IMG/VR virus record: IMGVR_UViG_3300028888_000043
Location: 265,756-329,755 of that record
From: a virus
Lineage: Duplodnaviria; Heunggongvirae; Uroviricota; Caudoviricetes
Length of the DNA: 64,000 nucleotides
Reading direction: 5' to 3' (one strand)
A program made the position numbers and the translations under genes. Below the pieces are notes generated by a model that ran no database searches, was not told the DNA's origin, and saw only the letters and a list, made by a program, of their open reading frames with translations. Shown piece after piece: positions 3,797-32,621 of the stretch. Numbering within the stretch: position 1 is the first letter of the stretch; every line of letters begins with the position of its first letter.

Positions 3797-3815
3797 CATA
3801 AATACCATATAAATA
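3797..3815 (+). promoter_or_regulatory. Tandem late promoters CATAAATA / TATAAATA
   Basis: 3797-3804 and 3808-3815, just upstream of the protease ATG. Confidence 0.7.
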
Positions 3816-7356: not shown

Positions 7357-7364
7357 CATAAATA
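7357..7364 (+). promoter_or_regulatory. Late promoter of major capsid gene
   Basis: CATAAATA in the intergenic region before the MCP. Confidence 0.7.
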
Positions 7365-7451: not shown

Positions 7452-9188
7452 ATGTTACAGAATGTTATTTTGAACGAGGCTGAGGTTTTGAAAACTTGGT
7501 CAGGTTTTATTACTGAGTCAACTGGCGTTACTGATCGTGCTAAATTGACTTGGATGAGTAAGTACTGCGCTTATCATGATATGAATGAGAAGCAGGCTCT
7601 CAATGAGAGTGCTCTTGGATATGCACATCTCAATCCTAATATGAATGTTGGTGGTATGGGCGCTGCCTACTTCCCAGGAGCAAATCCTAACAATGGTTAT
7701 GATGGTGTTCGTGGTTCAGGTGATAACCCATTCTCACTCCTTCCTCTTGCTGTTCAGGTCGCTGCACAGACTATCGCTCTTGACCTTGTTCCAGTAGTTC
7801 CTATGCAGGGACCTCTCGGAATCCTCCAGTACATGGACTATGTATACGAAGGTGGTAAGACCAATTTCCGTCCTCGTTTCGAGGGTGCAGACGAGTCAAA
7901 GACTGCTCCTCTTATGGTTAAGTTGACCCTTTCAACAGGTGATGCTAACTCTGATAGCGACATTGAGAATGCTCTCAAGTCAGATGCAGCTCTTGTAAAT
8001 GAAGATGCTATCAACCACGCACTCCGTTTCAAGGATCTCAAAGAGGCTTTCGTTCCTCATATGGATGCTATCAAGATTGGTGATTTCGAGCTCCTCTTTG
8101 TTGCTCTTGGCCGTATCGATGGTCGTCCTATCTTCCAGGTTAAGGAGAAGGCTTATCATGGTGGTATTATGAACGGTGGTGAGGGTGCTGCTGCTTCCCT
8201 CGCAGAGACTCTTCTTGTTGACGAGCCTGTTATCACTGGTGCTAATGGCGCACAGTTCTATGTTGTTGACATTGACACTGTAAAGGCACTTGAGGACTTC
8301 ATCCCTGGTTTCAGTGGTGTTGGTTTCAAGAATGGTGACCCTATGTCAGCAAAGGCTTATGACAGAGAGACTGGTGAATCCACTCCTTCAAACATCATGT
8401 CACTCAACACCTTCACCCTCAGTGTGAAGGCTAAGACCATCCAGGTCAAGGGTGCTATCACCCGTGAGCAGATCCAGGACCTCAAGGCCTACGGTATCGA
8501 CGCTGTTGCACAGGTCGAGGCTGAGCTTGTCAATGAGTTGACACAGCACATCAACCGTGAGCTCCTTGATGAAATCTTCGCTCTTGGTGATCAGAACCAT
8601 GTTGAGGCAGAGGCATTCGAGGGTATCAACCTCAATACTTACTTTGTTGTTGATCCTGCTGCTGCTGACATCGAAGGTTATGTTAAGTCTTATGTTGGTG
8701 GTGGTGCTGAGACTCTTGGTACCATCCAGAGGAGAATCATGTCTAAGATTCTTGCAGCTTCCAACCTCATCGCTCAGAGAGGTCGTAGAGGTGCTGGTAC
8801 CTTCGCTGTTTGCTCAGCCGCTATCGCTACCGCTCTCCAGGATTGCGCTGGTTTCGTAGCATATCCTCTTTCAAATACCATCAACCAGAACGCTGGTAGC
8901 CTCTATCCAGTAGGTGCTATTTCAGGTGTTTCTATCTATGTTGATCCTAACATGCCTTGGGCTTCAACAAAGGTTGTTGTTGGTAGGAAGGGTAAGGACA
9001 ATGAGCCTGGTCTCGTATTCATGCCTTACTTGATGGCTGACAAGCTCTCATATCCAGCAGAGGGTATGGAAGGTGCTCCTGTTACTTCTTTGAAGTCACG
9101 TTATGCAATCGTCCGTGCAGGTCATCATCCTCAGCTTTACTACTACTCATTCGACATCAAGCTTGGTGAAGGTGTTAGCCTCTACTAA
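7452..9188 (+). CDS. T4 gp23-like major capsid protein
   Basis: DLVPVVPMQGP, TREQIQDLKAYGIDA, GRRGAG, FMPY and KSRY motifs; strong high-expression codon bias. Confidence 0.93.
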   Translation: MLQNVILNEAEVLKTWSGFITESTGVTDRAKLTWMSKYCAYHDMNEKQALNESALGYAHLNPNMNVGGMGAAYFPGANPNNGYDGVRGSGDNPFSLLPLAVQVAAQTIALDLVPVVPMQGPLGILQYMDYVYEGGKTNFRPRFEGADESKTAPLMVKLTLSTGDANSDSDIENALKSDAALVNEDAINHALRFKDLKEAFVPHMDAIKIGDFELLFVALGRIDGRPIFQVKEKAYHGGIMNGGEGAAASLAETLLVDEPVITGANGAQFYVVDIDTVKALEDFIPGFSGVGFKNGDPMSAKAYDRETGESTPSNIMSLNTFTLSVKAKTIQVKGAITREQIQDLKAYGIDAVAQVEAELVNELTQHINRELLDEIFALGDQNHVEAEAFEGINLNTYFVVDPAAADIEGYVKSYVGGGAETLGTIQRRIMSKILAASNLIAQRGRRGAGTFAVCSAAIATALQDCAGFVAYPLSNTINQNAGSLYPVGAISGVSIYVDPNMPWASTKVVVGRKGKDNEPGLVFMPYLMADKLSYPAEGMEGAPVTSLKSRYAIVRAGHHPQLYYYSFDIKLGEGVSLY

Positions 9189-9214: not shown

Positions 9215-9255
9215 AGAGAGAATCCTTCGGGGTTCTCTCTTTTTTTGTTATATTT
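9215..9255 (+). terminator. cUUCGg terminator whose T tract runs into a TTTGTTATATTT promoter motif
   Basis: AGAGAGAATCC-TTCG-GGGTTCTCTCT-TTTTTT; motif at 9244-9255. Confidence 0.85.
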
Positions 9256-19132: not shown

Positions 19133-19165
19133 AAAGATAACAAAAATCCCGGATTTGTTATATTT
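19133..19165. promoter_or_regulatory. Divergent pair of TTTGTTAT(A/C)TTT promoter motifs
   Basis: AAAGATAACAAA (minus copy) and TTTGTTATATTT at 19154-19165. Confidence 0.65.
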
Positions 19166-24899: not shown

Positions 24900-25646
24900 A
24901 TGGTAAAGAAATATACAAAAGAAAATCCATTGAGGGTGTTTACAGCATTCTCTGGTTATGATTCCCAGTGTCTTGCACTCAACAGACTGGGAATTACTTA
25001 TGATTTGGTGGGTTGGTCAGAGATTGACCCTGCCGCCATCAAGGCGCATGATGCTCTGTTCCCACAGTATGCTGACAGAAATTATGGTGACATCTCCAAG
25101 ATTGATTGGTCACAAGTTCCTGATTTTGATTTGTTTACTTATTCAAGTCCTTGTACTGACTTCAGTAATGCCGGTGCACAGGCAGGTGGTGAGGAAGGTT
25201 CTGGTACCAGGTCATCCCTTCTGTGGGAATGTAGGAAGACTATCCTTGCCAAGAAACCCAAATATCTGATGTTCGAGAATGTAAAGGCTCTCACATCAGA
25301 GAAGTTCTTCTATCTCTTTGACAAGTGGTGTAAGGAACTGGAGTCTTATGGTTATGCCAATTTCTACCAGATATTGAATGCCAAGAACTATGGGGTCCCA
25401 CAGTCAAGGGAAAGGATTTTTATGATTTCTATTTTGAAAACTGATGATGAACCTGATCCATACTATGAGTTCCCTAAACCTGTCAAATTGGAGAAGTGTA
25501 TAGAGGACATTCTTGAGGATGATGTTCCTGAGAAGTACTATATGAAACCGGAAGTAACTGAGAAGTACATTGAAATTATGAATCAGGAGTATCCGGATGA
25601 GGTTGGTGAGGACATTGATGTGGAGGATTACACTGGGTTATGGTAA
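24900..25646 (+). CDS. C5-MTase catalytic N-terminal subunit (motifs I-VIII only)
   Basis: FTAFSGYDSQ (I), SEID (II), GDI (III), SSPCTDFS (IV), ENV (VI), PQSRERIF (VIII); ends before the TRD and motifs IX-X. Confidence 0.85.
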   Translation: MVKKYTKENPLRVFTAFSGYDSQCLALNRLGITYDLVGWSEIDPAAIKAHDALFPQYADRNYGDISKIDWSQVPDFDLFTYSSPCTDFSNAGAQAGGEEGSGTRSSLLWECRKTILAKKPKYLMFENVKALTSEKFFYLFDKWCKELESYGYANFYQILNAKNYGVPQSRERIFMISILKTDDEPDPYYEFPKPVKLEKCIEDILEDDVPEKYYMKPEVTEKYIEIMNQEYPDEVGEDIDVEDYTGLW

Positions 25647-25980: not shown

Positions 25981-26844
25981 ATGGAGAAGTTAAGTAATTT
26001 GAATGAGGCGAGAAGGGTGTTCATATATAATCATAAGACTATGCCCTTTGAATTTGCAGAAATTTGTAAAATGGATAAGTTCCAGACTAAAATTGCACAA
26101 AGGACAGGAAAGCCTTGGAGAAATTCTGTTGAACTAAACAAGTTCCTTAAAAATGATTATGCCGGTGAACTCCCAAAGAGTCTTTTGGAATTGGCCAGGA
26201 GGTTAAAGGAACCGGACTATATCTGTGATTTGTTCTATATGAGTGAAGATGGGTATAAGAACATGTACCCGGAAGAGTATGCCAATTTCTTTGAGAACAA
26301 ACCACAGTGGGAGAAGGAGAAGATATTCCAGGCCGCCGATTATGGTGCAAGGACATTGTTTGAGTTTGAGCAGGATGTGAAGGCCGGAAATTTGATGGAG
26401 GATATGATTGCCTACCATACAAAAGGTATCCTTTCTCCTAATGAGAATGCATCCGGTAGAGGTTCTGATGTACTTTCAACATCCTGTGACTTCATATTCA
26501 GAAGTCCCGATGACAGTATAGAGCAACCTGTCGAGTTGAAGACCAAGTGGGTTTACAAACTGAAGGACAAGGAGATTGTACAGATGAGAGGTACGATAGA
26601 CACAATCCTTAAAGAAAAGGGTATGGTCTTGGCCATATACATCAAAATGAACAAGGCGATACTGATTGATCCCATTGGGAAACATTATAATATGACACCA
26701 GGGAAGATGAAAAATGGGAAAGACTGTGTGAACATAGAGGTTGACAAGAATGATATTGTTGATTTCAAGTTTTGGAATAAAGAAGACCTCAAAAAAATGA
26801 TGCATATGATTTTAGACCAGCACAATGCAAGAGAAACCAAGTAG
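25981..26844 (+). CDS. Hypothetical protein, possible PD-(D/E)xK nuclease
   Basis: E...CDFIF...VELKTK pattern. Confidence 0.4.
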   Translation: MEKLSNLNEARRVFIYNHKTMPFEFAEICKMDKFQTKIAQRTGKPWRNSVELNKFLKNDYAGELPKSLLELARRLKEPDYICDLFYMSEDGYKNMYPEEYANFFENKPQWEKEKIFQAADYGARTLFEFEQDVKAGNLMEDMIAYHTKGILSPNENASGRGSDVLSTSCDFIFRSPDDSIEQPVELKTKWVYKLKDKEIVQMRGTIDTILKEKGMVLAIYIKMNKAILIDPIGKHYNMTPGKMKNGKDCVNIEVDKNDIVDFKFWNKEDLKKMMHMILDQHNARETK

Positions 26845-26888
26845 GTTTCTCTTTTTGTTATATTTAGGTATATAAAATTATTGATATT

Positions 26889-27155
26889 ATGGATGATAAC
26901 AAGTTGGTAATCCTTATACCAAGCAGTTCCCATATAGAGGAGTTGAAGCAGAAGGGGATAGATATTGAGACCGAACTGGCAAGGGTTGTCTTTGACAATC
27001 TCAATCTCATCAAGCAGGGACAGAATCCAAAGACATTGGGTATCAGTGTGACCAGGGAACAGATGAATGACCTGGCCAAGTATGGTATTGATGGACCTGG
27101 ATACATCTCCGCTACCTTCAAGAAGGAACTGCATGAGAGACTGGTGAAAAAGTGA
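26889..27155 (+). CDS. Small protein resembling a major-capsid helix
   Basis: VTREQMNDLAKYGID vs MCP ITREQIQDLKAYGID; promoter motif at 26854-26865. Confidence 0.65.
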   Translation: MDDNKLVILIPSSSHIEELKQKGIDIETELARVVFDNLNLIKQGQNPKTLGISVTREQMNDLAKYGIDGPGYISATFKKELHERLVKK

Positions 27156-27213: not shown

Positions 27214-27528
27214 ATGAAAGAAAAAGTATTCAAATTCAGAATTGTGGAGTTGACCCACAAGTATCTTGATGATGACAATGAGACAGTCAAGACCTATACG
27301 ACATACAAGGTGTATAGGAAGGTTAACTGGATTGTTAATTTCAGCGGATGGCAGGAAGTATGTGACGACATGCTGGATGAGTTCTACACCCTTGAAGATG
27401 CGAAGGATGTTGCCAAGCATTATGTGGACATGTGGAAGAGGAAGTATATGGAGAGCAGGAAGTGTGAGGATTTGAAAACCGAATCCAAGATTATCCTTGA
27501 GTTTGACCTGTCACCCTGGATGAAATAA
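27214..27528 (+). CDS. Hypothetical early protein
   Basis: Directly after the host-type promoter. Confidence 0.6.
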   Translation: MKEKVFKFRIVELTHKYLDDDNETVKTYTTYKVYRKVNWIVNFSGWQEVCDDMLDEFYTLEDAKDVAKHYVDMWKRKYMESRKCEDLKTESKIILEFDLSPWMK

Positions 27529-27955: not shown

Positions 27956-29377
27956 ATGAGTGATGTTGTAAAAGACAATGGCAGAATCTATACTCCGGCA
28001 AACATCGTGAAGATGATGCTGGATTATGCTGGTTATGTCCCTGGTCCCTGGATATGGAAGAAGCATGTCATCGACAACAGTTGCGGTGACGGGCAGATTT
28101 TGTGTGAGGTGGTCAGGAGATACATCACTTCATTTTCCAATCCGGGTGACTGGGAACTCCGGGACCAGTTGAAGGAATACATCCATGGTATAGAACTGGA
28201 TGAGACTGAATGTAATAAGTGTAAGGAGAACCTGAACAGGATTCTTGATGAATATTATATAGAGAGAATTGACTGGGACATCAGGTGTGGGAATTCCCTC
28301 ACTTTCAGGGATGAGTTCAGGGGGAAGATGGACTATGTGTTTGGTAATCCCCCTTATGTGAGGACAAAGAACATCAAGAAGTCTGATGATGATTACAAGA
28401 TATTGAGATGGTATGATTTTTCATCGACAGGTATGTCAGATCTCTACCTGGCATTCTATGAGCTTGGACTTGATATGAGGAATTCCGGAGGTATCCTGTG
28501 TTATATCGCACCCAGTTCCTGGACCAACAGTGTTTCCGGGAAAGTGATGAGATTCCATATCTCTGAGACAAGGGAATTGGCAGCAGTCATTGATTTCGGC
28601 CATTATCAGGTTTTTGACAATGCCACCACCTATGTGATGATAACCCTGTTTGACAACCATCCGCACAAGTACATCAGGTATGACAGGTATGAAGGGGAAT
28701 TGAAACAGGATTCTTTATTGTCCTATGAGGATGTGTTCATTGATGACAAGATGTATTTTGCATCCAAGGATGAGTGCGATGTATTGAAAATGGTGATGAA
28801 TACAAGTAAGAAAAAGATAGAAGTGAAGAATGGATATGCCACCTTGGCAGATGACATCTTCATTGACAATCTGCCTGATTTCAAGAATTACACCATTGAT
28901 GTGGTCAAGGCATCCACAGGACAGTGGAAGAAGTGTCTGTTCCCTTATGACAAGGATTTGAACCTCATCCCTATGAATGTGATAGAAAAGGTTAATCCGG
29001 AAGTATATGACTATTTTGTGCGGAATTATACCACATTGGATGCAAGGACTTATGATTCCAAGGGAAAGGAAGACACCTGGCATTCCATCGGAAGGAGTCA
29101 GGGATTGAAGGACACCTTTGTGAACAAGGTTTCTGTCAACAATCTTGTCAAGACTACTGATGATTTGAAACTGGTGGATGTTCCTTCTGGAAAGGGAGTC
29201 TATGGCGGACTTTACATCAAGACAGAAATGTCTGCGGATGAAATCAGGAATCTGCTTGCGAACGATGAGTTCGTCAGTTATGTGAAGACATTGAGGAAGT
29301 ACAAGAGCGGAGGTTATTATACCTTCTCATCAAAGGATTTGGAAAAGTATTTAAATTACAAGATGTATGGTGATTAA
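27956..29377 (+). CDS. Amino (N6-adenine) DNA methyltransferase, gamma class (Eco57I/TaqI-like)
   Basis: YTP, DNSCGDG (SAM binding), GIELD, GNPPY, DLY..F. Confidence 0.88.
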   Translation: MSDVVKDNGRIYTPANIVKMMLDYAGYVPGPWIWKKHVIDNSCGDGQILCEVVRRYITSFSNPGDWELRDQLKEYIHGIELDETECNKCKENLNRILDEYYIERIDWDIRCGNSLTFRDEFRGKMDYVFGNPPYVRTKNIKKSDDDYKILRWYDFSSTGMSDLYLAFYELGLDMRNSGGILCYIAPSSWTNSVSGKVMRFHISETRELAAVIDFGHYQVFDNATTYVMITLFDNHPHKYIRYDRYEGELKQDSLLSYEDVFIDDKMYFASKDECDVLKMVMNTSKKKIEVKNGYATLADDIFIDNLPDFKNYTIDVVKASTGQWKKCLFPYDKDLNLIPMNVIEKVNPEVYDYFVRNYTTLDARTYDSKGKEDTWHSIGRSQGLKDTFVNKVSVNNLVKTTDDLKLVDVPSGKGVYGGLYIKTEMSADEIRNLLANDEFVSYVKTLRKYKSGGYYTFSSKDLEKYLNYKMYGD

Positions 29378-32474: not shown

Positions 32475-32621
32475 GTTAGAAAAATGTTGGAAAGATTTGG
32501 AAATGTCAGAAATTTATTGTATTTTTATGGTACAATAAGATTGAAGATATGAATAATGTAGCAGTACTCCCATATTGAATTGGGTATCAAAGACCTGATT
32601 CTTTGTTATATTTACATTGTT

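Follow-up and report, generated by a model that had tools for sequence, protein, structure and literature searches.

A small protein of a T4-related jumbo phage carries two tandem units resembling a conserved segment of the phage's own major capsid protein

The stretch of DNA analysed here, referred to as the window, comprises 64,000 nucleotides (bases 265,756-329,755) of the 411,604-bp record of an uncultured T4-related jumbo phage, estimated to be 94% complete. It includes a T4-type head module with a gp20-like portal, a gp21-like prohead protease and a gp23-type major capsid protein (MCP; 7452..9188, + strand), the last a 578-aa product that matches Pfam Gp23 with an E-value of 8e-36 (124.6 bits). 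Outside this module, an ORF at 26889..27155 (+) encodes a protein of 88 aa, as described in an earlier note on this DNA. The note had also placed the gene in an anti-restriction island rather than in the head module, and DNA methyltransferase genes do flank it. On the 5' side lies a C5-cytosine methyltransferase chain (24900..25646), followed by a 112-aa gene and by a 287-aa gene resembling a restriction endonuclease (25981..26844, +), the latter characterised by synteny and by an ESM Atlas lead; on the 3' side lies an Eco57I-type N6-methyltransferase (27956..29377).

Several lines of evidence make it virtually certain that the 88-aa ORF is a real gene. Homologues in metagenomes form eight protein clusters with 55-100% identity, and further relatives extend down to 27%, for a tally of eight close and at least eight distant homologues, several of them on contigs of 230-410 kb. 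Compared with two relatives that are 81% identical, the gene has a dN/dS of 0.14-0.15. Upstream, the transcript of the 287-aa gene ends in a terminator-like hairpin (26829..26853, +) with a ten-pair stem followed by a T run, which is kept in relatives with both stem arms changed. Directly after the hairpin, 24 nt before the ATG, stands a promoter-like motif, TTTGTTATATTT (26854..26865, +), which is over-represented in the window and is conserved as TTTGTTATATTTAG upstream of the homologues in L005, L014, L016, L017 and L012. Finally, the protein yields a confident AlphaFold2 model, described below. The family to which it belongs appears in none of the curated profile collections searched: scans of the ORF with PHROGs, PADLOC and NCBIfam returned 0 families, and Pfam matched neither the ORF (E up to 1) nor any of 13 family members (E up to 10). 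Deposited phage genomes, searched at the nucleotide level, contained no match to the region.

Two over-represented upstream motifs, CATAAATA and TTTGTTATATTT, split the genes into two classes. The first, which resembles the T4 late promoter TATAAATA, occurs 13 times versus 4.4 expected, for example at 7357-7364 (before the MCP gene), 2007-2014 and 3797-3804, and its class precedes the portal, prohead protease and MCP genes. The second occurs 14 times in the window versus 1.4 expected; its sites include 9244-9255, 19154-19165, 26854-26865 and 32602-32613, and precede exonuclease, C5-methyltransferase, Tpt1 and small-protein genes. The TTTGTTATATTT class thus precedes non-structural genes while the head genes carry CATAAATA, in agreement with the earlier proposal that the small gene follows a non-late motif. 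From these motif associations we infer that the small gene is expressed early or, at least, not late.

The central claim of the earlier note was that the small protein closely matches part of this phage's own MCP. The similarity is supported by BLASTP, by profile comparison and by shuffled controls, but the match is not a close one: identity is about 31-37% and is concentrated in the motif TREQxxDLxxYGID. In BLASTP, ORF residues 37-88 align with MCP residues 317-370 (nucleotides about 8400-8561) with 17/54 identities and an E-value of 1e-6 for the single comparison, which becomes about 4e-3 once corrected for an all-against-all reading of the window. The Smith-Waterman score of the two proteins is 74, against a mean of 31 and a maximum of 60 for shuffled sequences (0/2000 as high). 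Profile alignment, which the note had named as the comparison by which the similarity could fall, was significant: with hhalign, the C-terminal half alone matched the MCP at 93.4% (E 2.6e-7; ORF residues 54-88 against MCP 336-370), an alignment of eight family sequences matched one of 13 MCP sequences at 88.6% (E 2.6e-6), and a profile of 24 repeat units matched at 92.2% (E 5.8e-7), values that may be inflated by the low diversity of the MCP alignment (Neff 1.8). When the family profile was run against the six frames of the whole 411,604-bp genome, the MCP was the sole match besides the gene itself (E 5e-5), and in the reverse search with an MCP profile the small ORF was the top non-self match (E 2.6e-3). 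The same held in 10 of 10 related phage records (62-363 kb), where the MCP segment was the sole non-family match of the family profile (E 2e-5 to 2e-4). Among 13 family members, nine outscore the maximum of 2600 shuffled controls against the MCP profile, and the distant members score within the shuffle range.

This relationship is local and specific to one clade of capsid proteins. The earlier note had pointed to an HMM search with the gp23 profile, and here the outcome was negative: Pfam Gp23 does not detect the small ORF, which is found only by a profile of this clade's MCP. The family profile likewise matched neither T4 gp23 nor gp24 when run against the PDB. In a search of 1.84 billion proteins no MCP reached the E-value cut-off of 0.001, a threshold that unrelated helical repeats of M56/BlaR1 proteins ('LxxLAKYGVDxD') did pass; MxA, seen in the PDB profile search, contains 'EELQKYGVDIPE', which also resembles the core motif. 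The core motif can therefore arise independently, and the MCP match owes its significance to confining the search to the genome of this phage, a restriction that is justified here. The shared residues (TREQ..DL..YGID) are specific to this MCP clade: MCPs with 75-100% overall identity retain them, as does one with 50% identity, and T4 gp23 and an MCP with 32% identity lack them. Moreover, the match spans 35-47 columns and thus extends beyond the core motif. We consider it very probable that the similarity between the ORF and the MCP is not due to chance. To this extent the 'mimic' part of the original proposal is borne out by the sequence statistics, which point to a conserved MCP segment copied in tandem beyond what chance would give.

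The copied segment comprises MCP residues 326-370 (8427..8561, +), the stretch in which the clade's MCPs are most conserved: a strand leading into the P domain, the short P-domain helix TREQIQDLKAY, a GID turn and the initial half of the long helix. Among the MCPs of the clade it hardly varies, even at 75% overall identity. Alignment of the MCP profile with T4 gp23 (5VF3 and others) places 'ITREQIQDLKAYGIDA' opposite T4 'YSIEL(A/T)QDLRAVHGMDA', in which PDB entries differ (A or T) by the isometric-head mutation A275T; T4 A275 aligns to I341 of the MCP and M59 of the ORF. In T4 numbering, the copied segment corresponds to residues about 262-304 of the gp23 precursor, or about 197-239 of mature gp23*. 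According to PMC9958956, the short P-domain helix of T4 touches, close to the quasi-threefold axes, a sheet of positive charge on the neighbouring capsomer, head-length mutations cluster there, and the head-length mutation A275T maps to this capsomer-contact helix. Judged by alignment, the small protein copies the capsomer-contact helix together with the turn and the initial half of the long 'spine' helix. The earlier description of the shared element as the 'backbone helix' is therefore only partly apt: the start of the long helix is included, but the best match is to the short P-domain helix and the turn that precede it.

Compared with T4-type gp23 and gp24 proteins (Pfam PF07068; PDB 5VF3, 1YUE, 7VS5), the ORF aligns through residues 46-88, and less strongly through 12-38, to this phage's MCP at the strand, short P-domain helix and long-helix start, the stretch that is also best conserved between this MCP clade and gp24. 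Unlike gp23 and gp24, however, the ORF represents about 40 of roughly 570 MCP positions, in duplicate, and has no A-domain, E-loop/I-domain, N-arm or P-loop. Its promoter class and locus also differ from those of the MCP. Although the local relationship to gp23-type MCPs is significant, the ORF falls below the Pfam cut-off and has no complete HK97 fold, and the small protein is not a capsid protein. Its family is undescribed and is best classed as a gp23-type capsid-protein fragment of an extreme kind, duplicated and exapted.

The protein is made of two tandem units of about 43 aa, each with the order strand, short helix, G-I-D turn and longer helix, as delimited by hhalign and by MCP-profile shuffles. 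Unit 2 (residues 46-88; 27024..27152, +) is the strong copy of MCP 326-370 and scores 16.1 bits against the MCP profile, with 0/3000 shuffles as high and a shuffle maximum of 4.8. Unit 1 (residues 1-45; 26889..27023, +) is a weaker MCP-like copy, whose score is equalled by 51 of 3000 shuffles. A second, weaker copy ahead of the main one had been proposed in the earlier note, and it depends on the level of comparison: hhalign aligns the N-terminal half with the C-terminal half in register (88%, E 3e-6), and with MCP residues 337-350 (E 6e-4), but in pairwise comparison the N-terminal copy is not significant (546/2000 shuffles). In an alignment of 24 units from 13 proteins there are nearly no internal gaps, and the consensus unit reads as a hydrophobic strand, (S/T)xE(Q/H)hxxLxx, G(I/V)(D/N) and a helix ending in (E/N)L.

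An AlphaFold2 model built with 13 sequences has a pLDDT of 92 and a pTM of 0.73 and contains four predicted helices (residues 13-21, 26-42, 56-64 and 69-86) and no sheet; a model built with 8 sequences was poor (pLDDT 52). Fold searches with Foldseek against the PDB and BFVD, and a wide VIA-align search, gave no significant match. The top-probability BFVD matches were a gp24 vertex protein and a gp23-type MCP (36 columns, rmsd 1.1 A, 33% identity), neither of them significant. Sequence-profile searches of the PDB with the whole family and with the 24-unit profile returned designed helical bundles, an RsgI anti-sigma domain (8HEP, E 0.35) and MxA, all at chance level. Two other readings were rejected: a helix-hairpin-helix, since the G-h-G motif lacks conservation of its second glycine, and a DNA mimic, since the net charge is merely 0 to -7. 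Most family members are neutral to acidic, with a pI of 4.9-6.7, values that fit protein binding better than DNA binding.

Outside the window, a 1029-aa ORF of the same phage (L063:1348-4437) carries near its C-terminus a peptide, DVGGMGAISFPGADGTPGSGDIP (G000:C1:238667-238765; L063:4168-4266), that resembles MCP residues 65-93 (NVGGMGAAYFPGANPNNGYDGVRGSGDNP); in the copy from G001, 12 identical residues in a run are shared with the MCP. This protein, the second non-capsid protein of the phage with an MCP-like peptide, is encoded by a late-motif gene, has an N-terminal GNAT acetyltransferase domain, and is followed by a RimK-like ATP-grasp gene. Separately, two bacterial M56/BlaR1-type membrane peptidases (P0136 and P0140) have long C-terminal arrays of about 35-aa repeats, 'LSxxQLxxLA(K/R)(Y/H)G(V/I)DxD', which are matched by the small-protein profile and covered by no specific Pfam family.

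The distribution of the gene among close relatives is patchy, and it is therefore accessory. It is present in G000, G001, G002 and G006, occurs as single units in G003, and is absent from the 96%-complete G004, whose MCP keeps the copied segment but for one substitution; IMG/VR contributed one further locus only. In G003 (IMGVR_UViG_3300021387_000661, 345 kb) there are two 51-aa single-unit genes (L061:7076-7231 and L062:3879-4034), one in the window-equivalent slot behind an endonuclease-like gene and the other near thymidylate synthase and DHFR genes. Both 51-aa proteins match the MCP profile (1/3000 and 3/3000 shuffles), and they look like either the ancestral unit or a reduced tandem protein.

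A further relative bears on the origin of the family. P0137 (L007:339-908) is a 189-aa singleton, known from contigs of 2.6-2.8 kb, whose residues 1-85 are homologous to the family (E 1e-5 among 1.84 billion proteins). Its residues 50-89 match MCP 328-367 and its residues 125-183 match MCP A-domain residues 448-505, so that the order of the MCP is kept. The second match includes VxVWVDPxxxW against MCP VSIYVDPNMPW (VEVWVDPHIRWDDAKI against VSIYVDPNMPWASTKV); taken alone, the C-terminal part scores 7.1 bits against the MCP profile (1/5000 shuffles, p about 2e-4) and is equalled by 1/2000 shuffles by Smith-Waterman. No relatives of P0137 were found among 5.8 billion proteins, and its ESM Atlas entry was uninformative. 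We read this one sequence as a putative, partly preserved truncated capsid paralogue, which may represent a 'mini capsid protein' intermediate, and its two MCP matches in MCP order argue for descent from a capsid gene. Overall, descent of the small-protein unit from the MCP is likely. The family probably arose when part of a capsid gene was duplicated and the resulting unit was then duplicated in turn, and the single-unit 51-aa forms and the 189-aa form that retains A-domain sequence outline how this could have happened.

The gene upstream also deserves attention. A D...ExK motif (CDFIF...VELKTK) is present in the 287-aa protein, and the ESM Atlas clusters closest to it carry the name restriction endonuclease (score 0.90, 21/30), a lead only; Pfam, PHROG, NCBIfam and PADLOC gave no match. 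Within the close clade, the small gene always lies behind a gene of 240-290 aa, and the pair is present or absent together. The two are adjacent in G000, G001, G002, G003, G006, L005, L014 and L016, and remain so where identity of the large protein drops to 32% and the small protein consists of a single unit. More distant members (P0134, P0139, P0137 and the second G003 copy) sit in small-gene arrays without an endonuclease-like neighbour. Beside the conserved pair, the gene just downstream (27214-27528 in the window) is variable: across the window and the corresponding slots in L005, L014, L017, L021 and L061 it encodes 104, 52, 169, 122 or 112 aa, or is missing, which marks the slot as a hot spot of gene replacement. 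A restriction enzyme carried by a phage within a methyltransferase island would merit separate study.

What might a duplicated piece of capsid protein do? The protein is neutral to acidic, as is its family, matches no RHH or other DNA-binding profile and is modelled without a beta-ribbon, all of which favours a protein-binding role. Taken as a whole, the observations are best explained, with a probability that we put at roughly 0.45, by an MCP-derived tandem accessory protein that would serve as a soluble stand-in for an MCP element. In this mechanism, the small gene would be expressed from the non-late promoter class, and its product would occupy a protein surface that recognises the nearly invariant element. 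The favoured partner would be a host sensor of capsid protein, with the small protein as decoy or blocker; the second choice would be the complementary P-domain surface of free MCP, with the small protein as a cap. An element that is both nearly invariant and located at a subunit interface makes a good target for a host sensor as well as a plausible handle on free MCP, and a sensor aimed at such a segment would be hard to escape by mutation. The accessory distribution, the non-late motif and the place among counter-restriction genes tilt the balance towards a capsid-sensor decoy over a role in assembly. That the small protein works by mimicry of the MCP is a tentative proposal, somewhat short of even odds; that it is specifically an anti-defence decoy is unlikely, if conceivable; and the fullest version, in which display of two copies of the nearly invariant contact element before the MCP appears would blind a host sensor, is slightly more doubtful still.

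Known systems lend some plausibility to such a decoy. CapRel(SJ46), staphylococcal Thoeris and others are triggered by major capsid proteins (reviewed in PMC13728456), and since capsid proteins thus act as direct immune triggers, a capsid-like blocker is conceivable. The literature that we searched describes no phage-encoded capsid-fragment inhibitor or decoy of capsid-sensing defences. The earlier note had drawn on Lit, and the exclusion system of Gol, EF-Tu and Lit (prophage e14) does resemble the present case in that a short gp23-type piece could be 'seen' by a host system. However, Gol acts within gp23 itself, whereas the small protein comes from a separate gene, and the analogy fails on position: the copied piece lies at T4 gp23 residues about 262-304, while the Gol region sits in the first quarter of gp23 (PMC3014915). 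The Gol equivalent in this phage is MCP residues about 100-133, a different segment from the copied residues 326-370, and an identity of the small protein with the Gol peptide, the activator of Lit, was accordingly rejected.

A different kind of precedent is offered by scaffold mimics that redirect capsid size, such as CpmB of SaPI1, which are small helical proteins that occupy a capsid-protein interface. These mimics are satellite-encoded and made during assembly, and their kinship is with scaffolding proteins, not with the MCP. The present protein shares with them its small size and helical nature, but it is MCP-related and phage-encoded.

The linkage to the endonuclease-like gene provides a strong competing lead. 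The MCP homology could be a relic, and the small protein could instead partner the upstream protein as an inhibitor, an antitoxin-like neutraliser or a regulator. The adjacency of the two genes in the loci and genomes listed above, in spite of divergence to 32% and reduction to a single unit, is in keeping with a partnership, as are their joint absence from the 96%-complete G004, the D...ExK motif and restriction-endonuclease clusters of the large protein, and the suitability of a small acidic protein as an inhibitor. Yet a conserved terminator and promoter stand between the genes, the distant members (P0134, P0139, P0137 and the second G003 copy) have no such neighbour, and joint absence may merely reflect loss of the whole island. 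Retention of clade-specific MCP residues would also be left unexplained, and we regard a partnership as doubtful on balance. A role as a capsid-assembly regulator or minor head component, which would bind the positively charged MCP P-domain sheet and modulate or cap capsomer association or dock on the shell, is improbable. It draws on the fact that the copied element is the capsomer-contact helix, the site of A275T in T4 (PMC9958956), and on the MCP-like N-terminal peptide in the late 1029-aa GNAT protein of the same genome, which suggests that MCP pieces may serve as docking modules. But the gene lies outside the head module with no late-type motif before it, the protein has, as read from its sequence, no T4-type capsid-targeting leader, and the gene is missing from a 96%-complete relative that has the same MCP segment but for one substitution, which argues that it is not a core assembly factor.

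Two further explanations dispense with a relationship to the capsid in the protein's function or origin. The resemblance could be convergent or accidental, reflecting a generic strand and helix-turn-helix hairpin with the common 'LxxYG(I/V)D' helix cap; the motif does recur in MxA and in the C-terminal repeats of M56/BlaR1 proteins, the MCP match of distant family members is weak, and neither Pfam Gp23 nor T4 gp23 is matched. We find this quite improbable given the reciprocal best matches within the genome (E 5e-5 and 2.6e-3), a score that 0/3000 shuffles equal, a match 35-47 columns wide, and the independent second match of P0137 in MCP order (p about 2e-4). Alternatively, each unit could be one half of an RHH-type DNA-binding regulator, with the tandem form a single-chain pseudo-dimer and the 51-aa forms dimerising, that controls the adjacent restriction-modification genes. 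The order of strand, helix A, turn and helix B, the unit length of about 45 aa, the existence of single and tandem forms, the restriction-modification genes next door and the presence of the RHH antitoxin DinJ among weak Foldseek matches all suit such a regulator. Against it, no Pfam family of the RHH clan matches any of 13 members at E up to 10, and RHH_1 (PF01402), a profile that gave matches in 14 of 14 control genomes, has none in this genome at E up to 1. There is no RHH chain among the PDB profile matches or the VIA-align top 50, no paired beta-ribbon in the AlphaFold2 monomer model, and a family pI of mostly 4.9-6.7; the strand of unit 1 is wholly hydrophobic, and the turn has Asp where RHH proteins have Ser, Thr or Asn. 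An RHH-type regulator is thus very improbable.

The soluble stand-in for an MCP element remains our preferred reading, and it would matter in several ways. Capsid proteins trigger several bacterial immune systems, and the literature searched describes no phage gene as countering them by capsid imitation. The present case, which has statistical support, is a mini-protein that is conserved and under selection and that consists of a defined part of its own phage's capsid protein; this part is functionally important, since in T4 it is the capsomer-contact helix. Pull-down and suppression experiments would have a defined candidate to work with. If the decoy reading is true, self-mimicry of structural-protein epitopes could be a general, undescribed counter-defence strategy; if the protein instead acts in assembly, head-size control in jumbo phages could be approached through it. 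Should its function be unrelated to either, the family still illustrates how fragments of structural genes are recruited as new accessory proteins.
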